A DNA stretch of 64,000 bases. It comes from Chiloscyllium plagiosum (taxonomy: Eukaryota). Of the stretch, positions 3,590 to 64,000 are shown piece after piece; the first letter of the stretch is position 1; each line of letters starts with the position of its first letter. A program made the position numbers and the translations under genes. The notes under the pieces are model-generated. The model was not told the DNA's origin, made no database searches, and worked only from the letters and a program-made list of their open reading frames with translations. The DNA lies in the NCBI RefSeq assembly GCF_004010195.1, contig NC_057752.1, positions 12,898,381 through 12,962,380 of the forward strand, in the 5' to 3' direction.

Positions 3590-5182
3590 CCCCAGAAGGC
3601 TGGGAGATAGTAAATGTTGTCCCCTTGTTCAGGAAGGGGAGTAGTCTACAGGAATAGTGCCAGAAGACTGGGATGTAGTAAATGTTGTTCCGTTGTTCAA
3701 GAAGGGGAGTAGAGACAACCCTGGTAATTATAGACCAGTAAGCCTTACTTTGGTTGTGGGTAAAGTGTTCAGAAGGGTTATATGAGATAGGATTTATAAT
3801 CATCTAGAGAGGAATAAATTGATTAGGGATAGTCAACATTATTTTGTGAAGTTAATAATGATAGTATCACCTGATGAAGTGGCTCCGAAAGCTAGTGTGC
3901 TTCCAATTAAACCTGTTGGACTATAACCTGGTGTTGTGTGATTATTAACTTTGTACACCCCAGTCCAACACCGGCATCTCCAAATCATTATTTTGTGAAG
4001 GATAGGTTGTACCTCACAAACCTTATGAGGTACTTTGAGATTGTGACCAAACAGGTGGATGAGGGTAAAGCAGTTGATGTGGTGTATATGGATTTCAGTA
4101 AAGCATTTGACAAGATTCCCCTTAGTAGGCTATTGCACAAAATGCGGGATTGAGGGTGATTTAGCAGTTTGGATCAGAAATTGGCTAGCTGAAAGAAGAC
4201 AGAGGGTGGTGGTTGATAGGAAATGTTCATCCTGGAGTTCAGTTAGTAGTGGTATACTGCAAGGATCTGTTTTGGGTCCACTGCAGTTTGTCATTTTTAT
4301 AAATGACCTAGATGAGAGTGTAGAAGAATGTGTTAGTAAAGTTGTGGACAGTGCTGAAGGTTACAGAGGGACATAGATAAGTTGCAGAGCTGGGCTGAGA
4401 GGTAGCAAATGGAGTTTAATGCGGAAAAGTGTGAGGTGATTTACTTTGGAAGGAGCAACAGGAATAAGGAGTACTGGGCTAATAGTAAGATTCTTGGTAG
4501 TGTAAATGAACAGAGAGATCTCGGTGTCCATGTGCATAGATCCCTGAAAGTTGCCACCTAGGTTGATAGGGTTGTTAAGAAGGCGTGTGGGTGTGTTAGC
4601 TTTTATTGGTGGAGGGCTTGAGTTTCAGAGCCATGAGGTCATGTTGCAGCTGTACAAAAACTCTGGTGCAGTCGCACTTGGAGTATTGCGTACAGTTCTG
4701 GTCACCGCATTATAAGGAGGATGAGGAAGCTTTGGAAAGGGTTCAGAGGAGATTTACTTGGATATTGCCTGGTATGGAGGGAAGGTCTTACGAAGAAAGG
4801 TTGAGGGACTTGAGGCTGTTTTCGTTAGAGAGAAGGTCGAGAGGTGACTTAATTGAGACATATAAGATAATCAGAGGGTTAGATAGGGTGGACAGTGAGA
4901 GCCTTTTTCCTTGGATGGTGATGGATAGCACGAGGGGTGATAGATATAGGACAGCTGGCAGAGGTAGGTTCTTTACTCAGAGAGTAGTAGGGGCATGGAA
5001 TACACTGCCTACAACAGTAGTAGACTCGCCAACTTTACGGGCATTTAAATGGTTATTGGATAGGCACATGGACGAGAATGGAATAGTGTAGGATTAATGG
5101 GCTTCAGATTGGTTCCACAGTTTGGTGCAACATCAAGGGCCAAAGGGCCTGTATTGCGCTGTTATGTTCTATGTTCTATGTT
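3590..5182 (+). mobile_element. 5'-truncated CR1/HER1 LINE (RT to 3' end), interrupted by a PLE mini-insertion
   Basis: VDVVYMDFSKAFDK, QGSVLGP.LF.IFINDL, HLEYCVQFWSP; (tatgttc)n tail at 5163-5181; multiple stops. Confidence 0.92.
3852..3985 (+). mobile_element. 134-bp PLE-derived mini-insertion with hammerhead motif and 15-bp TSD
   Basis: TSD cattattttgtgaag at 3837-3851 and 3986-4000; cac-ctgatga...gaaa-gcta-gtg at 3868-3897. Confidence 0.85.
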
Positions 5183-5264
5183 AAACTGAACTGGGCTAGT
5201 CATACAAAATATTGCGGCTGCAAGAACATGTCAAAGGCTAGGAACCTTTCAAAAATGCAATTGC

Positions 5265-5815
5265 TTTTATTAATTTATAGGATGTTAGCTGGTTCAGCAT
5301 TTATTGCCCGTCTCTTGTTGCCCCTTGTGAAGGTGGTGGTGAGCTGCCTTTTTGAACCACTTCAGTCCATGTACTGTAGGTTGACCCACAATGTTGTAAA
5401 GGAGGGAGTTCCAGGATTTTGATCCAATGACACTGAACAACAGCAATATATTTCCAACTCAGGATGGTGGGTGGCTTGGAGGGGAACTTGCAGGGGTGAT
5501 ATTCCTATGTGTCTGCTTCCTTGTCCTTGTAGATGGATGTGGTTGTGGGTTTGGAAAGTGCTGTCTCAGAATTTTTGGTGAATTTCTGCAGTGCATCTTG
5601 TGGATAGTACACACTGCTGCTACTGAGCATCAGTGGGGGAAGGAGTGGATGCTTGTGGATGTGGGGCCAATCAAGTGGGCTGCTTTGTCCTTGATGGTGT
5701 CAAACTTCTTGAGTGTTATTGGAGCTCCCAGGCAAGTGGAGAGTATTCCATCACACTTCTGACGTTTGTAGATGGTGGACAGTCTTTGGGGCGTCAGGAG
5801 ATGAGCTACTCACTG
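5265..5815 (-). mobile_element. 3' fragment of a second CR1/L2-group LINE (family C)
   Basis: Homologous to 17450-18005; its 3' tail matches SINE family B. Confidence 0.8.
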
Positions 5816-6264
5816 CTATTTGTTTTGTGCCAACCCTGCTCCCCGTGACAAAAAGTAGGCAATGCAGAGAGTGGGGCATGAAGAGAAACAATCTGTAGCA
5901 ATCATAATCTTAAATGGAACTGGTAGGATTAACATGCACAGTGATGATAAAAATGTATTGTCAAGTTACAGTAGCCTACTTTAAGGATGTCTTGGAGTGG
6001 CATTTGTCTATGAGGCTCCTATCCACTACGAAGGAACCGATCTTGTAATACTTTATCATTACCTTCAGGGCTTTACAAAGCTCTTCGTAATGGTTGAATT
6101 AGCTAGGTTAACAAGCATAGCCGATAGCTGTTAATGACAAAGAATCTCAGTCATGCGTGGAGAAACTATACACATAGGAGAACGACTCGAAAATGCCTTC
6201 TCAGTCTGGCTTTGAAATGTAGACTACTTTGTTCCAGGGAGGAAGTTAATAGTGGCACTACAAT

Positions 6265-7350
6265 TATTGCGTTCAATTCTGGTCACCACATTACAGGAAA
6301 GGTGTGTAGGCTTTGGAGAGGGTGAAGAGAAGGTTTACCAGGATGCTGCCTGAATCAGAGGGTATGACTTATAAGGAGAGGCTAGAAAAACTTGGGTTGT
6401 TTTCTCTGGAGCAGTGGAGGCTAAGGGGAAACTTGATAGACATCTATAAAGACTTGAAAGACTCTATACAGACAACAACCAAAACTAATGTAATTTACAA
6501 AATACCGTGCAAGAACTGTAACAAACACTACATTGGACAAACAGGCAGAAAACTAGCCATCAGGACATGAACACCAAATAGCCACAAAAAGACATGACTG
6601 TCTCTCACTAATGTCCTTACATACAGATAAGGAAGGACACGACTTCGATTGGGACAACACATCCATCCTAGGACAAGCCAAACAAAGACACGCATGAGAA
6701 TTCCTAGAAGCATGGTATTCAACCGGAACTCTCTCAATAAACACATCGAGTGAGACCCATCTACCACCCCCTGAGAAAAAGAACAGGAAGTGACATCACC
6801 AATCCAAAGAAACCAAAACATATAAATAGAAAGCAAGAATTTTCAGCATTGCTTTGCCTGAGGCCCACTGAAGATGTTACCTAGTAGGGTGATGAAACAT
6901 CTGGAAATGAACCTTCCAGCTCAGTGAGCAAACCTACTTCCAAAACCTCAACCTGAGCTATAAATCTTCTCAAAACCTGCTGAGACATCTATAAAATTAT
7001 GAGATGCATAGATAGGGTTGATGGTCTCAATCTTTTTCCCAGAGGTAAAATGTCTAAAACTATGGGCATGCGTTTAATGTGAGAGGGGGAAAGTTCAAAG
7101 GAGATGTGAGGGGCACGCTTTTTGCACAGAGCGTGCGAGAAGTATAGAACGGACTGCCAGGGGTGGTGGAGGAGGAGGCAGATATGATAGGGTCATTTCA
7201 GAGTCTTTTAGATAAGCACATGAAAATGCAAGGAATGCAGGGATGTTGGCCAAGGGCAGGCAGAAGGGATTAGTTGAACTTGGCATCATGTTTGGTACAA
7301 CATCGTGGGCCAAAGGGCCTGTCCCTGTGCTGTACTGTTCTATGTTCTAC
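6265..7350 (+). mobile_element. CR1/HER1 LINE 3' fragment interrupted by a PLE
   Basis: ERVKRRFTRMLP..YKERLEKLGLFSLE..RLRGNLI; resumes after 6995; tail ctgttctatgttcta. Confidence 0.88.
6451..6982 (+). mobile_element. 5'-truncated Penelope-like element: GIY-YIG endonuclease relic plus pLTR with hammerhead
   Basis: NVIYKIPCKNCNKHYIGQTGRKLAIR (GIY-YIG); cca-ctgaaga...gaaa-catc-tgg at 6865-6904; TSD agacatctataaa at 6438-6450 and 6983-6995. Confidence 0.9.
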
Positions 7351-7738
7351 TGGAATCTTGCAAGGATGCCTACCTTGAAGAAGTTCTCCTCTCTCTACAA
7401 AGATTTCAGTGAGTCTCTTTCTCACTGTAACCCCCAGGTCATCTCCTCTCCCTTGCAGCACCGTCCTCGTGACCTGACCCACCTGTCAATCTTCCTTCCC
7501 ACCTATCTGCTCCACCCTACCCTCTGACTTATCACCTTTACCCCCACCTCCATCCACCTATTGCACTCTTGGCTACCTTCTCCCCAGCCCCACACCCCTC
7601 CCATTTATTTCTCCACCTCGGAGGCTCCCAGCCTCATTCCTGATGAAGGGCTTTTGCCTGAAATGTTGATTCTCCTGCTCCTTGGGTGCTGCCTGACCTG
7701 CTGTGCTTTTCCAGCACCACTCTGATCTTGAATCTGGT
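7351..7738 (+). mobile_element. PLE 3' fragment/pLTR with hammerhead motif
   Basis: attc-ctgatga-agggc-tttt-gcct-gaaa at 7636-7663; same terminus as 16240-16420. Confidence 0.8.
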
Positions 7739-8377
7739 GGGAACACAGCTAAGCTTGATAAGTCCCCGTTTAAAATATTCAGCTGCAGAGTGGGAACAAG
7801 GTTTCTCAAATGATCAGGATCTGTGTTGAGAATGATTTACATTTCCTTGTCTAGTTTGAAGCTGAACTTACACTCCGTCCCATTTGCTCAGGTTCTTATC
7901 ATGGACATTTGTGAAAAGATGATAGGGGCAATTGTACAACCTCACAGTCATGTGATGCTTCACTCACCATAAGTTCTTGACTACCTCTTGACCTTTTAAA
8001 ACCCAAGGTTTGCAGTAAAATGTAGATTTTCACATGAATTTTGGGTAACAGTCAATGTTATGTTGCTATATCAAGTTTTTTTGTGAATTTGTTTTATGTG
8101 GAATAATTCTCAGTGTCAGTTGTGGAATCTTGAGGCTTGCGCAGGAATGGAGTAGGTTGATGCCTGTGCATTTCTATACTCCGCTCCATCACCGTTGGTC
8201 AGAGTGGAAGTTGTCATGCATATATTCATCTTGAAAAATGTAACCCCCAGATATCTATAAGTTCAACTTGAATTTTCTCAGGTTATGAGGAGGCTTAAGT
8301 TCAGATCCAAAATGATTGGACAACAAATTCTCCCTCTCACGTCCCTACCCAATGAAGTGTTGAAGCAGCTGGGATCA

Positions 8378-8512
8378 GGGGAGAGAAAAGAGAGCAGAAA
8401 GGTGGAGACAGAGGAATGAGAGACAAAGAGGAGATAGAGAGGGGAAAAGGAGATGAGAATAAAGGAGAGACAAAAAAGGAGAGAGTAGGGAGGGCGAAAG
8501 TAAATGGGAGGA
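8378..8512 (+). repeat. Purine-rich (GA) low-complexity tract
   Basis: Almost only G and A over about 130 nt. Confidence 0.8.
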
Positions 8513-8574
8513 CATAAACCCTCGCCCACTCTGAGATTTGTTCCAAATATGAATAAAACAATTTGCCATCTCTG

Positions 8575-8832
8575 GCCCTGAAGAAGGTGGGGGTGAGCTG
8601 CCATCTTGAACCACTGCAGTCCATGTGCTGTGGGTTGACCCACAATGTCCTGAGGGAGGGAATTCCAGGATTTTGACCCAGTGACACTGAAGGAACAGCG
8701 ATATATTTCTAAGTCAGGATGGTGAGGGGCTTGGAGGGGAACGTGCAGGGGGTGGTGTTCCCATTTATCTGCTGCCCTTGTCCTTCTCGATGGAAGTGGT
8801 CATGGGATTTGAAGGTGCTGTGTGAGGATATT
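8575..8832 (-). mobile_element. Family C LINE 3' fragment
   Basis: Matches 5325-5570 and 17510-17740. Confidence 0.8.
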
Positions 8833-9511
8833 TGTCATGTTCAAAGAAACACTAACAGAGGCTTGGAGAAATGGTTAATTAAAAGTGCACATTAAGGTCG
8901 ATCTCATCAGGCAGACCAGAGAGAAAAGCAGGCAGAAATGCACAACAGACTGGGTGCTGATGACTGTGATCAGTGCCAAATATGAGTGCCTGAAGATAAA
9001 CATTGCTTTATGTTGTGTTAAAAGCTGGTGCTTTTCCCCGTGTATTGAGATCCCAGTCTGGAGTGTCTCTGGGCTGTGAGTGACTACGCAGACCCTGTCC
9101 CTGAGATTACTTGCTCCTTATCTCAGGCAAGACTCTCCAATTCTTAACGTGCTGGAACACTCCTTTATACACAGTAGATTCTCAAATACAGCTCCCTAGT
9201 GTGGTGCCTAAGACTTCTTTCCTCACACAGTCATTCCAGACTGGTGTCCTCTCCCTCTCACTGATGTCAGAATCATGCGATCATGTGATTGACATTCTTA
9301 TTAGCCCATAGATATCTCCTCCTTTCTTTCCACTTATGAAGCTAGGTTGTCCCTTTGAGAGATAGCATTCTGAGAGTGAGCCCCAAACCAGCTCGAGGCT
9401 GAGCCCAATGCCCATCTAACTTCGTGTTCAAACTGACAGAAGAAATTGCTTCGGAATGGGAAATACAATGAATAAGTAAAAGTGTATAAAATGTTGAAAG
9501 TGGCGGTAAGA

Positions 9512-10870: not shown

Positions 10871-11127
10871 ATCAAGCCAGGCCTGTAAGAGGTGAGAGAA
10901 GTCCAGCCAATTGCTGAGCCGGGGAGACATGTTGAAAATTACTCCACTTGAGACTATAAAGGGAATTGTGCCAACTGTCATAATGCATTTGTGAAATAAT
11001 CAGGTCAGACGTTGAAGCAAATAATAACACTGGATTTCAGAGGCAATTGGATGCATTTCCAAAAGATCAAACAGATCTGTCAGAACAGAACCAGCTTGTT
11101 CAACATCATAAAAACAAAATGCTGTGG

Positions 11128-12478
11128 ATGCTTACTTCGGGTGTGGGTAAAGTGTTGGAAAATGTTATAAGAGATAGGACTTATAATTTTTTCGATAGGA
11201 ATAAGTTGATTAGGGATAGTCAACACGGTTTTGTGAAGGGTCGGTCGTGCCTCACAAACCTTATTCAGTTCTTTGAGATGGTGACCAAACAGGTGGATGA
11301 GGGTAAAGCAGTTGATGTGGTGTATGTGGATTTCAGTAAATCATTTGATCAAGTTCCCCATGATAGGCTACTGCACAAAATACAGAGGCATGGGATTGAG
11401 GGTGATTTAGTGGTTTGGATCAGAAATTGGCTAGGTGAAAGAAGACAGAGGGCGGTGGTTGATGGGAAATGTTCATCCTGGAGTTCAGTTACTAGTGGTG
11501 TACTGCAAGAATCTGTTTTGGGGCCATGCAGTTCGTCATTTTAATAAATGATCTAGTTGAGGGCGTAGAAGGATGTGTTAGTAAATTTTGCAGATGACAC
11601 TAAGGTCGGTGGAGTTGTGAACAGTGCGGAAGGATGTTGTACGTTACAAAGGGACATAGATAAGCTGCAGAGCTGGGCTGAGAGGTGGCAAATGGAGTTT
11701 AATGCAGAAAAGTGTGAGATGATTCACTTTGGAAGGAGTAATAGGAATGCAGAGCACTGGGCTAATAGTAAGATTCTTGGTAGCGTAGATGAATAGAGAG
11801 ATCCCTGTGTCCATATACATAGATCCCTGAAAGTTGCCACCCAGGTTGATCGGGCTGTTAAGAAGGCATATGGTATGTTAGCTTTTATTGGTAGAGGGAC
11901 TGAATTTCAGAGCCACGAGGTCATGCTGCAGCTATACAAAACTCTGGTGTGACCGCACTTGGAGTACTGTGTATAGTTCTGGTCACCACATTATAGGAAG
12001 GATGTGGAAGCATTGGAAAGGGTTAGAGGAGATTTACTAAGATGCTGCCTGGAATGGAGGGAAGGTCTTAGGAGGAAAGGTTGAGGGATCTGAGGCTGTT
12101 TTCGTTAGAGAGAAGAAGGTTGAGAGATGACTTAATTGAGACTTAAGATAATCAGAGGGTTAGATAGGGTGGACAGTGAGAGCCTTTTTCCTCTGATAGT
12201 GATGGATAGTACGAGGGGAGATAGCTTGAAATTGAGGGGTGATAGATAAAGGACAGATGTCAGATGTAGGTTCTTTGCTCAGAGTAGTAGCGGCATGAAA
12301 CGCCCTGCCTACAACAGTAGTAGACTCGCCAACTTTTAGGGCATTTAAATGGACATTGGATAGGCATATGGATGAGAATGGAATAGTGTAGGTTAGATGG
12401 GCTTCAGATTGGTTTCACAGGTCGGCACAACATCGAGGGTCGAAGGGCCTGTACTGTGCTGTAATGTTTCACGTTCTC
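11128..12478 (+). mobile_element. 5'-truncated CR1/HER1 LINE (RT to 3' end)
   Basis: SQHGFVKGRSCLTNLIQFF, FADDTKVGG, WQMEFNAEKC; close relative of 3590-5182. Confidence 0.93.
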
Positions 12479-12484
12479 TGCTGG

Positions 12485-12615
12485 AGTTCTGCAGCAAGCA
12501 TAAACGGAAATTGCTCGAGAAACTCAGTGAAAAGTCATATTGGAGTTGAAACATGAATTCGGTTTCCATCTCCACAGACTTGCAGAGTTTCTCAAGCACT
12601 TTCTGTTTTGATTTA
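12485..12615. mobile_element. Old inverted PLE mini-relic
   Basis: ggaaattgctcgagaaactc versus gagtttctcaagcactttc inverted arms around a decayed gaaaagtcatattggagttgaaacat motif. Confidence 0.5.
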
Positions 12616-14200: not shown

Positions 14201-14702
14201 GATGAGATTGCCTGTCCCCACATTATAGAACACAACATATCGGGCAGGGCAATTTTCAGCAGCAAAACAAGGCATTTATAGTCTGGCTGTATGATATTCT
14301 AATGAGACACAGTATACATCATCACTGGCAATGATGTAATGTTACATGATCTTGGTTTTTCAGCTTCGTGGCAAGATGGAACCATTGTGCAATGCTTTGT
14401 AAATAAAGTTAGTGCTTTTCTTACCTCAGCAGGCTCTATATTATATATTTCTTTCAAGACCAAGAGCATTAGATTAGAGGATACCCTACACTTGCTGTTC
14501 CATTGTTTGCTTTTCCCTTTCTTATCCACTAAGTCGGTCAAATCTAAGCATAATACTGCAGATGCTAGAAGACTGAAATAAAAGTGGAAAGTACTGGTAG
14601 ACTCAGCAGCTTTGGCGGCATCTGTGGAGAAAGAAACAGTTAATGTTATCTCTTACATCTCCCAACTCCCACCCCCACACACCAGGTCGTGTTATCATAC
14701 AG

Positions 14703-14838
14703 GAGAAATTGAGGTCTGCAGATGCTGGAGATCAGAGCTGAAAATGTGTTGCTGGAAGGGCTTATGCCCGAAACGTCGATTCTCCTGTTCCCTGGATGCT
14801 GCCTGACCTGCTGCGCTTTTCCAGCAACACATTTTCAG
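14703..14838. mobile_element. 136-bp inverted PLE mini-insertion with 15-bp TSD
   Basis: TSD cgtgttatcatacag at 14688-14702 and 14839-14853; gctgaaaatgtgttgctggaa / ttccagcaacacattttcagc arms. Confidence 0.88.
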
Positions 14839-14933
14839 CGTGTTATCATACAGTCTGCCGTTACACACTAACTAATGTTAGCCGCTAGCAGTCTCCGTCA
14901 ACAGATATTCACCTTCCCAGCCAGATCGTGATC

Positions 14934-16417
14934 GTTCACCATGGATATCCAATCCCTCTACACCTCCATCCGCCATGACCAGGGCCTCCAAGCCCTCCAA
15001 ACGTCCCCAACAGTACCCTTCCACCGACACTCATTCGTTTGGCTGAACTGGTCCTCACCCTTAACAATTTCTCCTTTGAATCCTCCCACTTCCTCCAGAC
15101 CAAAGGGGTAGCCATGGGTACCGGTATGGGTCCCAGCTATGCCTGTCTCTTTGTTGGCTACATAGAACAATCGATCTTCCGTAATTACACTGGCACCACT
15201 TCCCACCTCTTCCTCCACTACATTGATGACTGCATTGGCGCCACCTCGTGCTCCCGCGAGGAGGTTGAGCAATTCATCAACTTCACCAACACATTCCACC
15301 CTGACCTTAAATTTACCTGGACCATCTCTGACACCTCCCTCCCCTTCCTGGACCTCTCCATCTCCATTAATGACGACAGACTTGACACCGGCATTTTTTA
15401 CAAACCCACCGACTCCCACAGCTACCTGGATGACACCTCTTCCCACCCTATCTCTTGCAAAAATGCCATCCCATATCCCCAATTCCTCCGCCTCCGCCGT
15501 ATCTGCTCCCAGGAGAACCAGTTCCACCANNNNNNNNNNNNNNNNNNNNNNNNNNNNNNNNNNNNNNNNNNNNNNNNNNNNNNNNNNNNNNNNNNNNNNN
15601 NNNNNNNNNNNNNNNNNNNNNNNNNNNNNNNNNNNNNNNNNNNNNNNNNNNNNNNNNNNNNNNNNNNNNNNNNNNNNNNNNNNNNNNNNNNNNNNNNNNN
15701 NNNNNNNNNNNNNNNNNNNNNNNNNNNNNNNNNNNNNNNNNNNNNNNNNNNNNNNNNNNNNNNNNNNNNNNNNNNNNNNNNNNNNNNNNNNNNNNNNNNN
15801 NNNNNNNNNNNNNNNNNNNNNNNNNNNNNNNNNNNNNNNNNNNNNNNNNNNNNNNNNNNNNNNNNNNNNNNNNNNNNNNNNNNNNNNNNNNNNNNNNNNN
15901 NNNNNNNNNNNNNNNNNNNNNNNNNNNNNNNNNNNNNNNNNNNNNNNNNNNNNNNNNNNNNNNNNNNNNNNNNNNNNNNNNNNNNNNNNNNNNNNNNNNN
16001 NNNNNNNNNNNNNNNNNNNNNNNNNNNNNNNNNNNNNNNNNNNNNNNNNNNNNNNNNNNNNNNNNNNNNNNNNNNNNNNNNNNNNNNNNNNNNNNNNNNN
16101 NNNNNNNNNNNNNNNNNNNNNNNNNNNNNNNNNNNNNNNNNNNNNNNNNNNNNNNNNNNNNNNNNNNNNNNNNNNNNNNNNNNNNNNNNNNNNNNNNNNN
16201 NNNNNNNNNNNNNNNNNNNNNNNNNNNNNNNNNNNNNCCCCACTCCCCTATTGTACTCTATGCTACTTTCTCCCCACCCCCAACCTCCTCTCATTTATCT
16301 CTCCACGCTTCAGGCACTCTGCCTGTATTCCTGATGAAGGGCTTTTGCCCGAAACATCAATTTTCCTGCTCCTTGGATGCTGTCTGAACTGCTGTGCTTT
16401 TCCAGCACCACTCTAAT
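14934..16417 (+). mobile_element. 5'-truncated Penelope-like element with RT coding region (spans assembly gap)
   Basis: LVLTLNNFSF..QTKGVAMGT.MGPSYACLF..YIDDCIG..LPFLDLSI..FYKPTDSHSYL is PLE-type RT/thumb; hammerhead at 16327-16360; TSD ccagatcgt(g/t)atc at 14921-14933 and 16418-16430. Confidence 0.9.
15530..16237. other. Assembly gap (708 N)
   Basis: Run of n. Confidence 1.
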
Positions 16418-17449
16418 CCAGATCGTTATCCACTCCTTTGTCTATCCAGCTGTTCTTCTCTCTCCTTGGGCTCTCTTCTCACCTATCATTCACTCTATAC
16501 CCCCTTCCCCCATGCTATCTTCAACATATAAACTGACATTTTCCTAGCCACCATCGGTTCTGAGGAAGGGCCACTGGACCTGAAACGTTAACTTTGATTT
16601 CTCTTCACAGATGCTGCCAGACCTGCTCAGCTCTTCCAGCAACATCTTTGCTTTCTGATTTATAGCACCTGCAGTTCTTTAGGTTTTTAGTTAATGTTTT
16701 GAGTCCGGAATGACTCTTGTGATGTTTGTTACTTAAATCAGTAGCTCACAAAGTGGTCTGTAGACCACTGGTGGTTTGAGAGGGTCTTCCCAATGACTCA
16801 CAGGATGGTCCAAGATCCAAGTCACTGAGGTGCAACACCACAGCTGAGGCCATATGAGAGAACAGACTAGAACTTTCAAGTTGACCACTCGCTTGATGGC
16901 ACCTGACATGATCATGTGTGTGGCATGTGTCTCCACAAACACACACAACGGCAACGTCAGCTAATAGTCAAGATTTATGGATCTGTGGATTTTGTTTGAT
17001 GTTTAGATATGAGACAAGTATTAGCTTCTCAAAAGAACGATTGATTTTGCATCACAGATTCGAATGTTTCAAATGAACCTGTATTCCCTTGCAGTATTCA
17101 TGTTTATCATTTGCAAATGTCTATTTTAGGTATTTATTTGATGCTTAATTTGAATAAATATACATAAATGTACTTAGAGCAGAAAAAAAGGCCACAAAAT
17201 ATTTCGAGCTTCCATAAGTTTCCATTCCTTCTGGTGAGTCTTATTCAGTGGCAAGAGAAAATGGCTGAGGTTAGACCAGGATAGAAATGTTTGAGAGCCA
17301 TTGACTGCACCAAAATCATTTGTGAACTTGGGGTGGTAGAGGGAGCGGTAGCTAAGGGGACAATGGATTACCATCTGTTGGCCAACATGAAACTGAACAC
17401 CAGGAACAGGAGGAAGCCGTTTGATCCGTCAAATCATTTTTAAAAATTC

Positions 17450-41169: not shown

Positions 41170-42190
41170 TATTACTAGAAAGTTGAAATATCAAGAAAAA
41201 AGAGAAGGTGCTGGGGCAACTCAGCAGGTTCTGGCAAAATCTGTGGAGAGAGAAACAGACTTAATGTTTCAAGTCCGGTATGACTCTTCTTCAGAAGTGG
41301 AGGCCTTCCCTTCAATGAATTTTGAACTCACCTTGGTGTTGTACTCTCTTTCTTTCCCCTCGTTTATTTCTCTGTCCTCGCATCCTTGATCAGAAAATCT
41401 TCTCCCATTCAGCAAACGCTTTCACCTATCTCTAGTTATCCACCTTCCACATAGACCCCTACCTGCTCTCCGCCTTTTGATTGAGAGCTTCAGCATATTA
41501 TTGGTAATTTTCATCTCTCCCCTCAACCACATGAACCCGACTGCCTGTGAATCCTCGGGTCCAAACCTGATCTTGTTATCAAAGCTGCTGAGAAGAGTTG
41601 GAGGCAGTGCCAACTCTCAGACACCTCCTGCCATCTTTCCCTGAACATCAAGGACTGTCACTGACCTCTGAAGATCTCCCCTCTATAGCTCCCTGCCTCA
41701 TAGAGTCCCCAACCCCACACAGCCCTCTCCTATCCTAACCACGGTGGCACAGTGGTTAGCACTGCTGCCTCACAGCACCAGAGACCCGGGTTCAATTCCC
41801 GCCTCAGGCGACTGACTGTGTGGAGTTTGCATGTTCTCCCCGTGTCTGCGTGGGTTTCCTCCGGGTGCTCCGGTTTCCTCCCACAGTCCAAAGATATGCA
41901 GGTCAGGTGAATTGACCATGCTAAATTGCCCGTAGTGTTAGGTAAGGGGTAAATGTAGGGATATGGGTGGGTTGCGCTTCGGCGGGTCGGTGTGGACTTG
42001 TTGGGCCGAAGGGCCTGTTTCCACACTGTAATGTAATCTAATCTAAAAAATCTAATCTACCTTCTTCCCAAAATCCACAAACAGGCCTGTCCTGGTCCAC
42101 CTTTTCTGCTCCACTGAAATTATTTCTTTCTACCTTGACTTTTGTTTTTCCTCCCCTGGTACAGTCTTTTCCCAGCTACATCTGTCATTC
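41170..42190. mobile_element. Decayed PLE: antisense pLTR (41170-41298) plus sense RT remnant, interrupted by HE1
   Basis: Minus-strand ctgaagaagagtcataccggacttgaaacattaa; plus-strand PDLVIKAAEK (cf. IVIKPADKG) and YLLPKIHK..CPG. Confidence 0.7.
41740..42058 (+). mobile_element. HE1-type V-SINE, young copy
   Basis: CpG-rich and apparently little decayed; (taatc)n tail. Confidence 0.92.
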
Positions 42191-43814: not shown

Positions 43815-44455
43815 GAAGTCCAGAAAACAGGGACATAGTTTAAGGATAAGGGGTCTGCCTTTTAGGACTGAGATGAGGAGAAATGTCTTTACCCGAAGAG
43901 TGGTGAGCCTGTGGAATTCACTACCACTGGACGTGGTTGAGGCCAGAATACTGACTGTTTTCAAGAAAGAAGTAGACATAGCTCTTAGGCATATGGTGTG
44001 GAGGTGCCGGTGTTGGACTTGGGTGTACAAAGTTAAAAATCACACAACACCAAGCTTTTGGAGCACTGCTGCTTCATCAGGTGGCTAGTGGGGCAGGATC
44101 ATAGGACACAGAATTTATAGTAAAATTTATAGTAATAAATCGAAACCTGCAACCCATTCTAAGTGATTAAAAATTAACAGTAATCTAGGTTTGTTCATAA
44201 CATCACATCAGTTATATGACGCTTTGAACTTTTACTATACATTCTGTGTCCTATGATGCTGCTCCACTAGCTCCTTGATGAAGGAGCAGCCCTCCAGAAG
44301 CTTGTACTTCCAGATAAAACTGTTGGACTATAACCTGGTGTTGTGTGATTTTTAACTTAAGCATATGGGGCATAGGGCAGGATCATATTGATTGGAGTAG
44401 CAGGCTCAAGGGGTCGAATGGCCTACTCCTGCTCCTATCTCCTATGTTTCTATGC
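43815..44455 (+). mobile_element. CR1 3' end interrupted by an inverted PLE insertion
   Basis: GHSLRIRGLPFRTEMRRNVFTRRVVSLWNSLP; ctatgtttctatg tail. Confidence 0.85.
43997..44355. mobile_element. Inverted PLE insertion (family of 3852-3985) with two decayed hammerheads and 13-bp TSD
   Basis: TSD ctta(g/a)gcatatgg at 43984-43996 and 44356-44368; arms aagttaaaaatcacacaacacca / tggtgttgtgtgatttttaactt. Confidence 0.82.
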
Positions 44456-45199: not shown

Positions 45200-46645
45200 A
45201 ACTTAGAAGCAGATGTATGCTGTTCAGCTCTTCAAGCCTGCTCCACCATTCAATAGATTAATGGCTGGTCAGATTGTGGTCTCAACTCTGCTTTCCCATA
45301 TGTTTCCCATGACCCTTGACCCATTTTTGATCAACTATCTCTTTATCTCTGCCTTGTAATTGTACTCTCATCTACCACTTCTTCTGATAGTTCATTCCAT
45401 ATATACACCACCTTCTGTGTGAGGAAGTTGCCCCTCAGATCCTTTTTTAAATCTTGCCCCTCTCATCTTAAACCTATGCCCTCTAGAATTAGACTCTCCT
45501 ACTCTGAGAAAAAAGACCTTGGCTATTCACCCTATCCATACCTCTCATGATTTCATAAACATCTATAGAGTCACCCCTCAGCCTTTGATGCTCCAGGGGG
45601 AAAAAAAAGTCCCAGCCTATCCAGCGTCTCCTTATGACTCAAACCCTCTAGTCTTGATAACATCCTTGTAAATCTTTTTTGCATCCTTTCCAGTTCAAGA
45701 ACATCCTTCCTATAGCAGCATGACTAGATTGTACGCAGTACTCCAAATGTGGCCTTACCACTGACTTGTACAACTGTGGACAAAATTCACATTCTCCCAC
45801 TGATACCTGCCCAATTTATTCCCACTCACCTAACCTATGCTTTTCCAGATGATATACCACCTCTTCAGAATTTACTGTTCTATCTATCTTGGTGCAGGTT
45901 TAGATACTGTATATTCAGTACCTTCACCCAGGTTGATATAGGTTGTAAGTAATTGAGACCCTAACATTGATCCCTACGGGGAGAAAGTGAGGTCTGCAGA
46001 TGCTGGAGATCAAAGTTGAAACTTTATTGCTGGAACAGCACAGCAGGTCAGGCAGCATCCAGGGAGCAGGAGATTCGACGTTTCGGGCACAGGCCCTTCT
46101 ATTCGACGTTTCGGGCACGGGCCTGTGCCCGAAACGTCGAATCTCCTGCTCCCTGGATGCTGCCTGACCTGCTGTGCTGTTCCAGCAATAAAGTTTCAAC
46201 ATTGATCCCTACGGCTCTCGTTTCAACTTTCTAACGTAAAAATGTTGGGTTTATGACTACTTGCTGCTTTCTGTTTGCTAATCAATCTTTTATCCATGCT
46301 AATAAGTTACTCTCTATGCCATGAGTGTTTATTTTCTGTCGGAACCTTGGATATGCTGTTTAGAAATCCAAGCACTCGCTGTCCACGGCTTCTTCTTTGT
46401 CCACTTTGCCTGTTACGTCGTTATATAACTCGAATAAATCAGTTAAGCATTCACAAAATCATGTTGACTCTGCCTGACTCCATTAGAATTTTTTAAGTAC
46501 CCTGCTATTGCCTACTTACTAATGGATTCTAACAATTTCCATATGGTGGACGTCAGGCTAACTAAATTCTGCTTTCAGTCTTCCAGTTTATTTAATAAGG
46601 GTGAAATATTGATTATTATCCAATCCATTGGGACCTTTCCAGAAT
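45200..46645 (-). mobile_element. CR1 fragments (45200-45780 3' ends; older fragment to 46645)
   Basis: ctctcatgatttcataaacatctatagagtcacccctcagcc; ccattgggacctttccagaatc. Confidence 0.7.
45980..46200. mobile_element. Near-perfect palindromic PLE mini-insertion with TSD
   Basis: TSD (aac)attgatccctacgg at 45963-45979 and 46198-46214; ~80-bp perfect inverted arms. Confidence 0.92.
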
Positions 46646-50578: not shown

Positions 50579-50594
50579 AATTCTTCTTTTGTTC

Positions 50595-51099: not shown

Positions 51100-52520
51100 G
51101 TAGTATGGAAAATGCTAAGAGTCCATTATAAAAGACTGACTAGGAGGGCACTTGGAAAACAATAACAGGATCAGACAGAATCAGTATGAGTTTACTGGAA
51201 GGGGTATCATGCTTGACAAATCTGGTGTTTTCAAGGATATAATTTGTAGAGTTGTTAAGGAAGAGCCGTTGATGGAGTTTACTTGGACATTTGATAAGGT
51301 CCAACTAAGAAATGAGCATGTAAAAATAAAACACATTGAATTGGGTGTATTGTACTGAAATGGATAGGGAACACTGGTTGGTAGTCAGGAAACAGAGTAG
51401 AAATGAATGGGTCATTTTCTGACTGGTGGCCAGCAACGAGTGGGGTATCCAGGGATCAGTGCTTGGACCCCAGCTATTCACAATATATATTAATGATTTA
51501 GTTGAGGAAACTAAATGTAGTATTTCCAAACTTACAGATGACACAATGCTGGGTGAGAGGGTGAAAAGGATGCTTCAGTGTAATTTGGAAACGTTGAGTG
51601 AGTGGGCAAATGTATGGCAGATGAAATATGTTGTGGATAAATGAGAGCTTATCAACCTTGGTGATAAAAACATGATAGTAGATTATTATATGAATGGCAA
51701 TAGATTGGGAAAGGGGAAGTGTAATGAGATATGGCTGTCCTTGTACACCAGTTACTGAAAGTAAGCAGGTGCAGCAGGCGGTGAAGAAAACAAATGCTAT
51801 GTTGTCCTTCATAGCAAGACCATTTGGGTACAAGAGCAGGGATGTCTTGCTGTAGTTGTATAGGGCTTTGATGAAACCATGCTCAGAGTATTGTGTGTAG
51901 TTTTGGTCTCCTTACCTGAGGAAAGGTGTTCTGGCGATGGAGGGAGTGCAGCAAAGGTTTCCCGGACTGATTCCTGGGATGGCAGGACTGATATATAAAG
52001 GGATTCTGGATTAGTGGTGCTGGAAGAGCACAGCAGTTCAGGCAGCATCCAAGGAGCTTCGAAATCTTTATTCCTGATGAAGGGCTTTTGCCCGAATCGT
52101 CGACTTCGAAGCTCCTTGGACACTGCCTAAACCGCTGTGCTCTTCCAGCACCACTAATCCAGAATCTGGTTTCCAGCATCTGCAGTCATTGTTTTTACCT
52201 CGTTGATATATAAAGGGAGTTGACCTTAAAGAGGTTTATAAAATCATGAGAGTGTGGATAAGGGTAATGGCAGGTGCCTTTTCCCTAGGATGGTGGAGTT
52301 CAAGACTAGGGGGCATATTTTTAAGGTGAGAGGAGAAAGATTTAAAAAGGACATGAGGGGTAACTTTTTTCTACACAGTGATTCATGTGTGGAATGAACA
52401 TCCTGAGGATGTGGTCAGTGCAGGTACAGTTACAATGTTTAAAAGATATTTGGATAAGTGCATGAATAAGAGGGCTTGGGCTAAGTGCAGGCAGTTGGGA
52501 CTAGTTTAGTTTGGGATTAC
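51100..52520 (+). mobile_element. CR1 RT-to-3' fragments with nested PLE mini-insertion
   Basis: QGSVLGPQLFTIYINDL..SKLTDDT. Confidence 0.85.
52004..52203. mobile_element. 200-bp inverted PLE mini-insertion with hammerhead and 15-bp TSD
   Basis: TSD tgatatataaaggga at 51989-52003 and 52204-52218; attc-ctgatga-agggc-tttt-gccc-gaat-cgtc at 52070-52101. Confidence 0.9.
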
Positions 52521-55139: not shown

Positions 55140-55300
55140 ACAGGGAGACAGTGAGGTCTGCAGATGCTGGAGATCAGAGTTGAGAGTGTGTTGCTGGAAA
55201 AGCACAGCAGGTCAGGCAGCATCCGAGGAGCAGGAAAATCGATGTTTTGGGCTGGAGCCCTTAGTCAGGAATGATAAATGGGAGGGGAGGGAGGGAGCTG
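55140..55300 (-). mobile_element. PLE pLTR fragment with mutated hammerhead
   Basis: Minus strand attc-ctgacta-agggc-tcca-gccc-aaaa-catc. Confidence 0.8.
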
Positions 55301-56032: not shown

Positions 56033-56246
56033 TATGAAGTGAGGACTGCAGATGCTGAAGACGTCAGAATCGAAAAGGTGGCACTGGAAAAGCACAGCAG
56101 GTCAGGCAGCATCTGAGAAGCAGAAGAGTTGATGTTTCAGCCATAAGGGCTACATTCCTGATGAAGAGCTTATGCCTGAAACATCGACTCTCCTGCTCCT
56201 TGGATGTTGCCTGACCTACTGTGCTTTCTACCTCCACCCTTTTCGA
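56033..56246. mobile_element. 214-bp inverted PLE mini-insertion with hammerhead and 12-bp TSD
   Basis: TSD ctcctcagaatg at 56021-56032 and 56247-56258; attc-ctgatga..gaaa-catc-gact at 56154-56189. Confidence 0.88.
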
Positions 56247-57919: not shown

Positions 57920-58385
57920 TTTTTTTAATTCCCTACAGTGTGGAAACAGGCTCTTCGGCCCAACCAGTCCACACTGACCCTTCGAAGAGTAAGCCACCAA
58001 GACCCATTTCCCTCTGACTAATGCACCTAACACTATGGGTAATTTAGGTAAAAACAAAGACTGCAGATGCTGGAAACCAGATTCTGGATTAGAGTGGTGC
58101 TGGAAAAGCACATCAGGTCAGGCAGCATCCGAAGAGCAGGAAAATCGACGTTTCGAGCAAAAACCCTTCATCAGGAATACAGCACTATGGGTAATTTAGC
58201 ATGGCCATTTCACCTAACCTGCACATCTTTGGACTGTGGGAGGAAACCGGGGTACCCGGAGGAAACCCACGCAGACACAGGGAGAATGTGCAAACTCCAC
58301 ACAGATAGTCACCCGAGGCTGGAATCGAACCTGGGACTCTGGCGCTGTGAGGCAGCAGTGCTACCCACTGAGCCACTGTACCGAT
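57920..58385 (-). mobile_element. HE1-type V-SINE containing a PLE mini-insertion
   Basis: HE1 head at 58340-58385; A-tail (T9 on +) at 57918-57926. Confidence 0.9.
58048..58182 (-). mobile_element. 135-bp PLE mini-insertion with hammerhead and 17-bp TSD
   Basis: TSD cactatgggtaatttag at 58031-58047 and 58183-58199; minus strand attc-ctgatga-agggt-tttt-gctc-gaaa-cgtc-gatt. Confidence 0.9.
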
Positions 58386-58449: not shown

Positions 58450-58757
58450 AGATTAGATTACTTACAGTGTGGAAACAGGCCCTTTGGCCCAACAAGTCCA
58501 CACCGATCCTCCAAAGAGCAACCCACCCAGACCCATTCCTCTACATTTATCCCCTCACCTAACACTACGGGCAATTTAGCATGGCCAATTCACCTAACCT
58601 GCACGTTTTTGGACTGTGGGAGGAAACCGGAGCACACGGAGGAAACCCACGCAGACACTGGGAGAACGTGCAAACTCCACACAGACAGTTGCCTGAGGCG
58701 GGAATTGAACCCGGGTCTCTAGCGCTGTGAGGCAGCAGTGCTAACCACTGTGCCACA
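58450..58757 (-). mobile_element. HE1-type V-SINE, young copy
   Basis: Very similar to 41740-42058; (taatc)n tail. Confidence 0.92.
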
Positions 58758-59020
58758 GTTGTGAAACTTGAAGAGGTTCAGAAAAGATTTATAAGCATGT
58801 TGCCAGGGTTAAAGGATTTGAGCTATAGGGAGAGGCTGAATAGGCTGGGCTACTTTCCCTGGAGTGTCGGAGGCTGAGGGGTGACCTTATAGAGGCTTAT
58901 AACATCATGAGGGGCATGGATAGGATAAATAGCCAAGATCTTTTCCCTGGGGTGGGGGAGTCCAGAACTAGAGAGCATATATTTAGGGTGAGAGGGGAAA
59001 GATATAAAAGAGATCTAAGG

Positions 59021-59180
59021 GGCACTCCCTCAGCAGTGACCCTCCGATAGTGCGGCACTCCCTCAGCACTGACCCTCCGACAGTGCGGCACTCCCTCAGC
59101 ACTGACCCTCTGACAGTGCGGCACTCCCTCAGTACTGACCCTCTGACAGTGCGGCACTCCCTCAGCACTGATCCTCTGAC
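59021..59180 (+). repeat. 33-bp minisatellite, about 4.8 copies
   Basis: Unit ggcactccctcagcactgaccctccgacagtgc starting at 59021, 59054, 59087, 59120, 59153. Confidence 0.95.
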
Positions 59181-59944
59181 CAGGCAATGAGCCCGAGTGT
59201 TCATGCAGCAAACGTGTTGAATGGAGTAGGTATTGACATTGTGTGACAGTGAGGGGATAGTCTGTTTATTGCTCTCCTCCTAATCTGTATTCCCAGTTGC
59301 CGGATCTGACAGGTTCTTAACAAGACCAGTTTGAATGAGGAAGGCCCTATGGCCCTTATTTGAACATGTCAAAGATGTATTATAATTACATTGTATGTTG
59401 CGAATAATGTTGATTTTGTGACAGAGGTTGGGTTGTAACATGTTTGTGTACAATGTATGATGCAAGTGTAATTCGTTGGTTGTGAAGTGCTTAGGCATGT
59501 GGAAAGAATATCTTTTCTCTCTGCTGCGAACCTAACGAAGGACAGTGTGGTTCGCAGAGAGAAACTGTCTCCTCTGCTTGGAGAGTCCAGACAACGGGGT
59601 GTAACCTTAAAATGATAGGGAGACTGTTCAGGAGGCACTTGTTCACACCAAGTGGAATGTAAATCTGCATTGTTCTCACCTCAACTCATTTTATTGTTTT
59701 GTAGCATTATTAATCGTTTTGCAAGCAGAAATGAAATGAAGATAGATACAGTCATGTGAGGAGCTGAATGGTCCTCTGCTATTCCAGTGCTTTATATCTC
59801 AGAGATCCCCTACAGTGTTGAAACAGGCCATTCAGCTCAAGTTGTCCACACTGACTCTCCAAAGAGCATCCCAACCAGACTCACCCCCTACTCTATCCCT
59901 GCATTTCCTATGGCTAATCCATCTACCCTACACATCCTTGGACA

Positions 59945-60149
59945 GGAAGAAAGTGAGGACTGCAGGTGCTGGAGATCAGAGTCAAAAAGTATAGTGCTGG
60001 AAAAGCACAGCGGGTCAGGCAACATCCAAGGAGCAGCAGAGTCGAAATTTCAGGCATAAGCCCCTCATCAGGAAATACAGTGTCACTATAAAACATCAAC
60101 ACATTCCTGATGAAGGGCTTATGCCCGAAACGTTGACTCTCCAGCACCA
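59945..60149. mobile_element. Inverted PLE mini-insertion with two opposed hammerheads and ~14-bp imperfect TSD
   Basis: TSD cacatcc(t/c)tg(g/a)aca at 59931-59944 and 60150-60163; hammerheads at 60041-60074 (-) and 60103-60138 (+). Confidence 0.85.
60103..60138 (+). ncRNA. Minimal type I hammerhead ribozyme motif (best-preserved copy)
   Basis: auuc-CUGAUGA-a-GGGC-uuau-GCCC-GAAA-c-GUU-gacu: both core boxes, 4-bp stem II, palindromic aacguu minimal stem III, NUH triplet; stem I is weak. Confidence 0.7.
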
Positions 60150-60354
60150 CACATCCCTGAACACTATGGGCAATTTAGCATGGTCAATCCACCCTAACCT
60201 GCACAACTTTGGATTGTGGGAGGAAACCGGAACATGGAGGCACAGGGAGAATGTGTAAACTCCACACAGACACTTGCCCAAGGGTGGAATTGAACCTGGT
60301 CCCTGACGCTGTGAGGCAGCAATGCTAGCTACTGAGTCAGCATGCCGCTCCTTG

Positions 60355-60391
<37 letters not shown>

Positions 60392-60480
60392 TTTGCTCTG
60401 TGTCTTTGTATCTCTCTGTTTTTTTTGTTGCTCTCTTTGTATCTCCTATTATATCTCTCGCTTTCTCTCCCTCTGCTTCC
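60355..60480 (+). repeat. (CT)n microsatellite and pyrimidine-rich tract
   Basis: Perfect (tc)n at 60357-60387. Confidence 0.95.
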
Positions 60481-60894
60481 TGGTTATTCAGCCACAAAGA
60501 AGGTGCACCATCCTGGAATTTACTGCACTTCCAGCCACCACGCACACCATCTTTCTTGCTTCCAGCACATGGCTGCCATTGTCTACAGAACTTTCGGTCT
60601 GCAAACCACAATCCCTAATGCTCCCAGCCCCATCAGAGAATGGCAGCTAGCTCCACACCTTTCTCACAAGAATGGCTGAAGGCACTGCATCAACACCATA
60701 GGGATTTCAGTGTGAGATCTTGTGGTGAGTGAATGCCTCATCTCCCATGCTCCTTCCCACCCTGGTTGTTGTAAGAGGAAGAGGTACAGGTCAGGGGATG
60801 GGGAAATGAAAGGATTTTAACTCCCTGACCAAATGGGATGTGAGTTAAAGCTATCACTCTCAAAACTCCCTATGGCCAGTCTAGAATTGGATAA

Positions 60895-61985
60895 ACTTGA
60901 TAAAGGGAAATTGATGAATGTATATATTTAGATTTTCAGAAGTCTTGTGATAACATTCCACACCGGGGGTTATATTAATATTAGAATATTAAATTGCTCA
61001 GGATAGGAGGTAATATCCATGGATTAATGATTGGTTAACAGAGACAGAGTGTGGGCCATTCTCACGTTGACAGTCTGTGACAGTGGGGTACCGCAGGGGT
61101 CAGTACTTGGACCCTAGTTGTTCACAATATAGATCAATGGTATGGGTGTGGCGACCACTTGCAATGTTTCCAAATCTGTAGATGAGCAAGACTGTGTGTT
61201 CCAAGGAAGATGTCAACTGTTTTCAGGAGGATTTGGACAGACTCTTTGAATGGACGAGAACATGGCAGATGGAATATGATGTGGGAAAAGGTGTTCAGAA
61301 GTATTCCTTAAATGGTAAGATTTTGGAAAGTGTAAATGTATAAAGGGACCTAGGTGTCCTTGCTAATAAGTCACTGAAGATCAACATTCAGGTGCAGCAA
61401 GCTATTGGGAAGGTGAATGTAATGTCAGCCTTTATTGTCAGAGGGTTTGAGTACAGGAGCAGTGAAATCTTGCTTTAATTTTACAGGAGCTTGGTTAGAC
61501 TGCAGCTGGAGTATTGAGTGCAGTTCTGGTCTCCATATCTCAGGGAAATAACGATTGAGTTTCAATTGACTCGTTCCCAGAATGGTGGGACCATCCCATG
61601 CTGGGATATTGGGCAAAACTGAGCTTATATTCTCTAGTGTATTAGAAAATGAGAGCTGGTCTCATTAAAATCGATAAAGTAGATGGAGGTAAGTCCGAGT
61701 TGGCCAAGCTGGGACCAGGGGTACAACTTAAAAATAAGGGGGCTGCCCTTCCAGGCCGAGATGAGGCGAGTTGTTTTTTTTTACTTAGAGGGGTATGAAT
61801 CTTTGGAATTCTCTCCATGCGATGGCAGTATTAGCTCAATGAGTAGGTTTAAAGCAGAGATTGGCCGATCTTTGACTGTGTTTGATATACAGGGTTATGG
61901 CAATGGGGATATGGCAATGGGGATATGGCAATAAAATGTGTTGAAGTGGTTGAAGTGATCACTCATGATTCTGTTAAGAGCATAG
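60895..61985 (+). mobile_element. Old CR1 RT-to-3' fragment
   Basis: ggggtaccgcaggggtcagtacttggacc; ctggagtattgagtgcagttctggtctcc. Confidence 0.8.
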
Positions 61986-62002
61986 CATCATCCCATTCAT
62001 AT

Positions 62003-62392
62003 GTCCCTGTCCCGCAAGTGTTTGATGGGAGTGGTGTAGATTGAGCTTTACTCTATACCTAACCCCGTGATGTCGCTGTCCTGGGAGTGTTTTACGGGGG
62101 GACAGTGCAGAGACATCATTACTATGTAGCTAATCCCGTGCTGTCCTTGTCCTGGGAGTGTTTGATGGGGAACAGTGTAGAGGGAGCTTTACTCTGTATC
62201 TAACCCCAAGCTGTCCCTGTCCTGAGAGTGTTTGATGGGGACAGTGTAGAGAGACCATTGCTCTGTAGCTAACTCCGTGCTGTCCCTGTCCTGGGAGTGT
62301 TTGATGGGGGACAGTGTAGAGGGAGCTTTACTCTGAATCTAACCCCGTGCTGTCGCTGTCCTGGGAGTGTTTGATGGGGGACAATGTAGAGG
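62003..62392 (+). repeat. ~70-bp minisatellite, about 5.5 copies with alternating variants
   Basis: Unit gtcctgggagtgtttgatggggacagtgtagagggagctttactctgtatctaaccccgtgctgtccct. Confidence 0.93.
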
Positions 62393-63259
62393 AAGATATT
62401 CACTGTGGAGTGTGTGGTGCAGTGCTTGCTGAACTGTGCAGAATGGTTTATTAAATTGGATGCTGTAGGGTGCAGGATCTGGCAAGTCGTCAGATTTACA
62501 AGGATTTTGTCCTTAAAAAGGGGAGGAATTGAGAAACACAAGAGCCTGCAATTCATCAACCTGATAGCTCTGTGCCTTTGCTGAGAAATGACCAGCACAG
62601 TTCAGCCTACTGAACAACTTGCCACACAGTTTCCAAACCAGGAGGCACTCGAGAATTTCAGCTTGACTCAAAATATTTCCAACAGTTGGAATGGAGAATA
62701 TTCTGCAGCCGGGAGAACTTGCTTTTTGCATATCCTGTCATAAATTCATTGTGTCCTGTTTAAAACAACAGGCAAGCTGTTATTCCTATTAGCTGTGAAT
62801 TACAAAAGGAGAAGGAAAGACTGGGATTCCAGCCAATCTTTTCTGTTTTCAGCTTGATTTAAAAAAAATAGAGTGACTCTTTTCTATTATAGTCATGAGC
62901 AGGTTATTTATAGAAAGCCCATCGCATTGACCTATCTCAAAGGTGCTTTCCTCTGTGAATTGGTTTCATGTGGCCTGACATGTTGTGCACAGCAAGAGCC
63001 CATATCGCAGCACTTTGACCTTCCAAAGATATTGGTTGAGCAAGGAGTATGGACCAGGATCCCAGGAGGACTTGTGTCCTTTAGGAGCTCTATGGAATCA
63101 CTTTCATGTACCTGAGCCACTGCAATCGGCTTGATGAATGCCGTGTTCCAGATTTCATCAGGGATCAGCACCTCTGCCACTGCAGAGTTCTCTCAACACT
63201 GCCGTGAGGATCTGTCAAGTGGAAAGGATTTTTGTAAACCCACAACCTCCCAATTACAG

Positions 63260-63420
63260 GCACACATGCATACATACATATACATTCAGAGATACACATA
63301 TTCACTCACACATACACACAGACACACACACACATATATGAAGACACACACTCGTAAACACAGATACAGGTACACTCTCACACAGACACATGCATTCATA
63401 CAGACACACAAACACATACA
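63260..63420 (+). repeat. Degenerate (CA)n microsatellite
   Basis: Interrupted cacaca/cataca runs. Confidence 0.9.
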
Positions 63421-63599
63421 CCTTCTTCTATATTGTCCTATCACATGCTTATTAAAAGTACCATGTACAAAAGTAAAGTCATTACATATGTAGGTTTGCA
63501 TAGACTATCCAGCACAGGAACAGGCCATTTAGCCCACAGTGTTTATCCTACCCTTGAGCCTCCTCCCATCTTGCCTCATCTTAAGAATGCATAAGGGTC

Positions 63600-64000
63600 A
63601 CTTGCCTTTATCAAATATGGTATAGATTATAAGAGCAGGGAGGTGATGTCGGACATGTACAGATCTTTGGTGAGGCCAGAGCTCGAGTTCTGTGTGCAAT
63701 CCTGGTCCCCACACTATAGGAAGGATGTGATTATACTGGACAGGGTGCAGAGGTGATTCACCGGGATATTGCCTGGGATAGAGCAGTTTAGTGATGAAGA
63801 GAGGCTGGATAAACTTGGGCTGTTTTCTGTAACCATGATGTGGAGGTGTCAATGTTGGATTGGGGTGGACAAAGTCAGAAGTGACATTACATCAGATTAT
63901 AGTCCAACAGGCTTATTTGAAATCACAAGCTTTTGGAATGCTGCTCAAATAAACTATAACCTAGTGTTGTGTGATTTCTGACTTTGTTTTCCATAGAGCA
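63600..64000 (+). mobile_element. CR1 fragment with nested inverted PLE relic (about 63830-63985)
   Basis: PGIEQFSDEERLDKLGLFS, then gatgtggaggtgtcaatgttggattgggg..acaaagtcagaa / ttctgactttgt arms as at 43997-44355. Confidence 0.78.

Follow-up and report, generated by a model that had tools for sequence, protein, structure and literature searches.

What kind of insertion fills a 64-kb stretch of the genome of the shark Chiloscyllium plagiosum with short sequences that end like Penelope-like elements (PLEs) and carry whole or broken hammerhead motifs? In this stretch (contig NC_057752.1, positions 12,898,381 to 12,962,380; called the window below, and the scope of all counts and of the tree), an initial annotation had listed ten such items and offered two readings, either stereotyped abortive PLE insertions or a ribozyme-defined, non-autonomous class resembling retrozymes or short interspersed nuclear elements (SINEs). 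The existence and approximate positions of all ten were borne out. They constitute a dense population of PLE stubs of known anatomy and not a new element class, and they are probably short insertions of hammerhead-bearing PLE ends, made afresh at each integration by priming at both target nicks, with an early stop that mostly falls just before the ribozyme. The first of the two readings gains support from arm ends that cluster at the front of the hammerhead, whereas the second is not supported.

Nine of the ten items stand between target-site duplications (TSDs) of variable length, from 12 to 17 bp, and seven of these are exact (Table 1). The duplications are not a product of chance, since an exact repeat of at least 12 bp was found in only 1 of 393 random intervals searched with equal slack. 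Among the seven TSDs first described as clean, six are indeed exact (3852, 14703, 45980, 52004, 56033 and 58048), but that of 43997 contains a mismatch; the TSD at 59945, described as imperfect, is so. The remaining exact duplication belongs to the relic at 12485 and emerges when a nested piece of a long interspersed nuclear element (LINE) is taken into account, its two copies lying 1.5 kb apart because this piece later split the tail. At 63830 the window ends 15 nt beyond the element, and what the TSD search returned there was an artefact of this edge. TSD searches at five other copies (7636, 55150, 1613, 41294 and 120) gave nothing convincing. The insertions 58048 and 59945 landed in nearly identical segments of one abundant short repeat family (58031-58250 and 59930-60230).

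The internal structure of these items differs from the simple order of hammerhead motif and ~100-nt PLE terminus that had been assigned to them. That order describes the two simple stubs, 3852 and 58048, while the other eight consist of two inverted arms, being head-to-head fold-backs of the PLE end, a main feature that the initial annotation missed. A tail of ~35 nt stands on exactly one arm in all eight fold-backs (0.004 under independent coin flips), and such an arrangement, in which a 5'-truncated copy is inverted and one end bears a 30-40-bp tail, is the mark of an insertion by an endonuclease-bearing PLE. With positions counted from the predicted hammerhead cut site (minus upstream, plus downstream), the core of the best represented family begins at -28, the body reaches to near +63 and the tail to near +99. 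The junctions between arms differ in all eight cases. The tail-less arm outreaches the tailed one on the upstream side in 14703, 56033 and 12485 and, in 43997, retains a stretch deleted from the tailed arm, so that in four of the eight neither arm is a plain copy of its partner.

Table 1. PLE-derived insertions and related features in the window. Fold-back centres are given as tailed/tail-less arm ends relative to the predicted cut site; RT, reverse transcriptase; numbers in brackets are names used in the text.
Feature	Coordinates	Strand	Fold-back centre	Structure	TSD
Family A simple stub	3852..3985	+		hammerhead core, body and tail	15 bp, exact
Family A fold-back	43997..44355	tailed arm minus, tail-less arm plus	~-180/~-73	tailed arm with internal deletion	13 bp, 1 mismatch
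Family A fold-back relic	63830..63985	tailed arm minus	-20/+12		~7-bp duplication only
Family B fold-back	14703..14838		~+42/-23		15 bp, exact
Family B fold-back	45980..46197		-23/-21	99% likeness between arms; 18-nt re-copied piece at the centre, which lies in stem II	17 bp, exact, 3 of them overlapping the element end
Family B fold-back	52004..52203		-36/+1	tail-less arm starts at the predicted cut site	15 bp, exact
Family B fold-back	56033..56246		-17/~-36		12 bp, exact
Family B simple stub	58048..58182	-		-36 to tail end; 91% identical to terminus of RT-bearing copy	17 bp, exact
Family B fold-back	59945..60148		-36/~-32, 21 unassigned letters between	core pattern in both arms; internal deletion in tail-less arm	15 bp, 2 mismatches
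C-like fold-back relic (12485)	11106..12615		~+25/-28	tail split by ~1.35-kb LINE piece	13 bp, exact (11093-11105/12616-12628)
5'-truncated family B PLE (RT-bearing copy, 16240)	14934..16417	+		RT-coding part to 15527, 708 N, 3' region and hammerhead, without tail	13 bp, 1 mismatch
Longer family B copy (7636)	~7350..7740	+		~190 nt of upstream region	none found
Family B copy (55150)	55143..55300	-		tail present; lacks 27 nt that hold the upstream hairpin	none clear
PLE piece of another family, 532 bp	6451..6982	+		endonuclease C-terminal remnant and hammerhead	13 bp, exact
6-bp hairpin	16311..16325	+		directly upstream of hammerhead; a 6-bp hairpin of different sequence at 7621-7635	

Truncated copies in inverted orientation, tailed on one side, belong to the usual anatomy of PLEs. 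As published (Arkhipova 2013, PMC3846280; Craig 2021, PMC8557442), insertion units of endonuclease-bearing PLEs comprise an inverted 5'-truncated pseudo-long terminal repeat (pLTR) and a 30-40-bp tail on one side, and the likeness extends to head-to-head arms, TSDs, joins with microhomology and deletions, and insertion into other PLE copies. The shark stubs differ from the units described there in that the whole insertion measures 134-359 bp without a body of open reading frame (ORF) between the arms, their TSDs are 12-17 bp long instead of the 8-10 bp of rotifers, and their arm ends cluster at the hammerhead.

At least three families contribute to this population: A (3852, 43997 and 63830), B (14703, 45980, 52004, 56033, 58048 and 59945) and a C-like group, to which 12485 was assigned by sequence comparison. 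Families A and B gave no match to each other in a similarity search of the window. The core pattern of the hammerhead is intact in four of the ten (3852, 56033, 58048 and 59945) and in 7 of the 17 arms examined, but broken or absent in the other six. An Rfam search returned no hammerhead family and only four weak matches, treated as chance, two of them to microRNA precursor models and both of these on the stubs. The core carries an extra base before stem II and a palindromic stem III remnant, matching the minimal type I hammerhead of PLEs, for which an extra base before stem II, a palindromic stem III remnant and a short stem I are described in PMC4209133. Single-strand folding of four copies did not yield the full hammerhead fold, as expected for minimal forms, and the terminus patterns had no match among contigs from viruses and metagenomes. 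For family B, the PLE origin and the identity as minimal hammerhead, both proposed at the outset, are supported, and for families A and C we infer them from shared anatomy.

The parent of family B can be approached through the RT-bearing copy, whose hammerhead core begins at 16331 with a predicted cut after 16358. The claim that the same terminus follows a PLE RT stands for family B only, and there with 708 N between the two, the link resting on the 13-bp TSD with one mismatch around this 1484-bp insert. The RT piece (14934-15527) gave a weak RVT_1 match and shares 93% identity with a protein of Chiloscyllium punctatum; its relatives carry both RT and GIY-YIG domains, the combination of an RT/GIY-YIG PLE. 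Because two of these relatives (P0022 and P0057) have a cysteine motif between the RT and endonuclease domains, which the literature gives as a mark of the Neptune and Nematis clades, the family B parent is likely of Neptune type.

Arm ends provide the evidence on where copying stopped. A total of 25 were placed by hand, several approximately, by similarity to the terminus and with TSDs or junctions as bounds, not by the hammerhead motif; copies 120 and 41294, whose 5' end was not placed, were omitted. Thirteen of the 25 fall between -40 and -17, a 24-nt span picked after the data were seen, and three lie exactly at -36. To look beyond the window, four public runs were aligned to 14931-16430 at 80% likeness; a run presumed to be RNA, X20, had high terminus depth and was left unused, since a few contigs can dominate. 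In three runs, summed contig depth, which does not equal copy number, was 8.7 (X1), 5.9 (X11) and 15 (X21) times the RT mean at the terminus and already near the RT level at -50. In X1 it fell from 13.3 million at 16388 to 7.7 at 16356, 3.0 at 16325 and 1.1 at 16307, with an RT mean of 1.06. The biggest pile of loose ends among those listed is at 16327 (-32), in 1204 and 1344 contigs. All four opposite-strand joints among the 15 joints listed (341 more exist) link 16327-16328 to 16360-16366, that is, to the cut region, with an accuracy of only ~5 nt; the top one occurs in 16 and 13 contigs. For a stereotyped breakpoint the evidence is good inside the window and, outside it, suggestive.

These features would follow if the element protein primed one complementary DNA (cDNA) from each target nick, one per start site, which would leave a one-sided tail and keep the TSD. 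Copies would then run off the RNA 5' end or stall at a hairpin, most often just before the ribozyme. A similar biochemistry is described for the Poseidon protein PAc of Anolis carolinensis (Frangieh 2024, PMC11167929), a predicted dimer that nicks both strands and extends them. It initiates at two internal RNA sites on either side of the tail, close to the ORF start and just past the hammerhead, and requires RNA to ORF position 172, beyond the tail. If the shark protein has the same need, stubs, which lack sequence past the tail, would be dead-end products of PLE integration. Two differences from PAc are that relatives of family B have the cysteine motif and that target and template overlap here by 0-5 nt, while PAc priming is called non-homologous in that source. 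Summed over eight tail-less priming ends, the overlap is 17 nt where 5-7 would be expected (p 0.0006-0.005), which fits pairing of the primer.

LINE-1 twin priming is a related case, with two nicks, two primers, inversion with microhomology and a TSD that is kept; in the shark stubs, by contrast, both arms copy one stretch, with starts ~35 nt apart. Strong-stop DNA offers a further comparison. As a tentative proposal, a dimer may prime at both nicks and run off either a transcript start near -36 or a ribozyme-cut end at +1. With start sites near the mRNA 5' end, cDNAs begun at them would reach the end of the template in ~100 or 135 nt, which matches the observed sizes, and arms ending near +1 may reflect cut RNA.

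Several points weigh against the interpretation of the stubs as early-stopped products of priming at both nicks, with ends mostly just before the ribozyme. The span of -40 to -17 is post hoc and the placement of several ends approximate; the span does not include the tail-less end of 43997 (~-73). The depth step is confounded by upstream sequence specific to subfamilies: copies 7636 and 16240 are ~83% alike over 60 nt of upstream sequence, the consensus of the loose ends at 16327 ends in a stretch resembling the upstream sequence of 7636, and the depths are sums over contigs. At 16356 and 16359 the reference is atypical, so that alignments tend to end at 16360 and the cut-site joints lose precision. 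Families A and C show no link to an RT, and later loss of palindrome centres could imitate unequal arms. In PMC11167929, no RNA reads ended at the cut site and cleavage was not required in vitro.

The main rival to run-off places the stop near -36 at a stall of the RT on a long template, at the RNA hairpin before the hammerhead or at the ribozyme fold, and this is possible though far from assured. Hairpins in two subfamilies (-7.8 and -8.8 kcal/mol), which show compensatory differences between them, end at about -33 to -34; copy 55150 lacks the 27 nt that hold the hairpin; ends at -17 to -23 fall within stem II, and several arms are internally deleted. Nonetheless, the hairpin is present in only two copies and skipped in only one, three arms end exactly at -36, and six base pairs generally make a weak block.

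Rather unlikely is an origin of the second arm by self-priming, in which the cDNA folds back on a single, possibly antisense, template. This was proposed for rotifer Penelope elements as the source of palindromes at head-to-head junctions, and it would suit 45980, with its centre in the stem II hairpin and its nearly identical arms. However, the outer ends of both arms match the two start sites already known, with microhomology to the target, and in four of eight the tail-less arm holds sequence missing from the tailed arm, a finding that speaks against plain fold-back copying provided that no centres were lost afterwards; on these grounds plain copying was rejected.

Ordinary smooth 5' truncation, with the size peak an artefact of hammerhead spotting and of upstream divergence among subfamilies, has a low probability. 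The window does hold longer PLE copies that the initial annotation did not list (6451-6982, ~7350-7740, 14934-16417, 55143-55300 and others), including lengths of ~390, 532 and 1484 bp, heavy truncation is known for PLEs, and the depth step is partly confounded with subfamily divergence. Exponential truncation models, on the other hand, put at most 6-14% of ends in the span that holds 13 of 25, a post hoc comparison, and the ends in the window were found through terminus similarity and bounded by TSDs or junctions.

Equally improbable is a self-propagating, non-autonomous class, SINE- or retrozyme-like, with an internal promoter and re-copied in trans. The two simple stubs are nearly equal in length (134 and 135 bp), Penelope has an internal promoter, and internal initiation would regenerate an identical 3' end. 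PLE-related retrozymes are reported in a chondrichthyan and non-autonomous PLEs in Chlamydomonas. Non-LTR (long terminal repeat) retrozymes (Cervera and de la Pena 2020, PMC7229834; Li 2026, 10.64898/2026.07.22.740005) are likewise non-coding, of a 150-450 bp scale, endowed with a type I hammerhead and akin to PLE pLTRs, but they form head-to-tail tandem units each with a ribozyme. None of the ten items has such units, all being single or head-to-head with mostly broken cores, and a tandem retrozyme was rejected for these reasons. If the template requirement of the anole protein applies, the stubs moreover lack the sequence past the tail that re-copying would need.

The phylogeny leads to the same result. 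A tree of 16 short rows (arms) and 135 columns was built from family B and longer copies, with arm 59945R, the family A arms and copies 12485, 14560 and 120 omitted. Instead of standing apart, the minis interleave with longer copies, and a single clade of the ten family B mini arms is rejected (p-AU 0.0001). The RT-bearing copy falls in one group with 58048 and the two arms of 52004 (95/94). Sister placement of the paired arms from a single insertion is seen in three of four testable cases. Both arms of a fold-back thus bear the subfamily variants particular to it, and its junction is likewise particular, which is what inversion in the course of insertion would predict. The small size of the tree, which covers one window, leaves room for small mini-only lineages inside a subfamily. 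A single SINE-like mini family was rejected on the three families, the eight different junctions and the test of the clade.

The RNA data are in keeping with these results. In one poly(A) single-cell run the terminus is covered on both strands (622 and 864 reads in the hammerhead bin), 94% of terminus reads continue into unlike sequence, and the sole start pile-up among those listed lies in the RT, with none listed at the terminus, which fits passengers in host transcripts. No discrete RNA ends showed in this one poly(A) library, a type unable to show circles.

Palindromic non-autonomous DNA transposons (miniature inverted-repeat transposable elements, MITEs) are short, inverted and TSD-flanked too, but this origin is extremely improbable and was rejected, as the TSD varies from 12 to 17 bp without a fixed length, the tail on one side breaks the symmetry of terminal inverted repeats, the centres are not alike and the sequence is the terminus of an element that codes for an RT.

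In all, ~19 PLE insertions were counted across the 64 kb, with a range of lengths. The first ~110 nt of the longer family B copy (7350-7460) are no continuation of its upstream region; they may represent an internal piece in inverted orientation. More decayed hammerhead-bearing termini of other families are located at 1-250, 1500-1715 and 41195-41300. A four-layer nest occupies 14540-16725, where an old minus-strand PLE stub is split near the hammerhead cut site by a family C copy (~14653-16688) that contains both insertion 14703 and the 1484-bp RT copy. A tandem array of ~70-bp units extends over 62002-62430.

In several family B arms (58048-58128, 45980-46058 and 55143-55222, minus strand), an open frame of ~27 codons starts at an ATG 17 nt past the cut site and runs across body and tail. 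This ATG may be an ORF start, in which case the stubs would not be wholly non-coding in origin. No PLE protein beginning with the terminus-encoded peptide was found among 120 relatives, and a profile search with this peptide against 1.84 billion proteins gave one match, internal to a PDZ host gene model. Family C termini (16585-16613; 1640-1675; 41250-41275, minus) show, just past the hammerhead and immediately ahead of the ATG, a run of pyrimidines that ends in CAG and resembles a splice acceptor; it is exactly at this ATG that the host gene model P0121 passes into the terminus peptide.

Solo and opposite-strand minimal hammerheads, most of them solo and the pairs 100-700 bp apart, have been ascribed to truncated PLEs (Cervera and de la Pena 2014, PMC4209133, in the parts available). 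The shark copies share with them the type I minimal core with its extra base, stem III remnant and short stem I, and the opposite-strand pairs; sharks, TSD-bounded stub sizes and breakpoint positions are not mentioned in those parts. Literature searches, which did not cover most subscription papers, Repbase or Dfam, found no paper on shark stubs or on hammerhead-clustered breakpoints, and the stereotyped stop before the ribozyme is the sole point worth following.

The stubs explain the abundance of solo and opposite-strand hammerheads in shark genomes, and they caution against annotating such palindromes as MITEs, SINEs, retrozymes or microRNA precursors. How PLEs replicate has yet to be resolved (PMC11167929). 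If the clustering at -36 and +1 holds genome-wide, both the origin of inverted pLTRs with a one-sided tail and the hammerhead cutting of transposition RNA in vivo would become testable from sequence alone. Should the strong-stop-like reading be true, shark copies would represent a fossil map of PLE RNA ends and a first indication from genomes that in vivo cleavage by minimal PLE hammerheads takes place.

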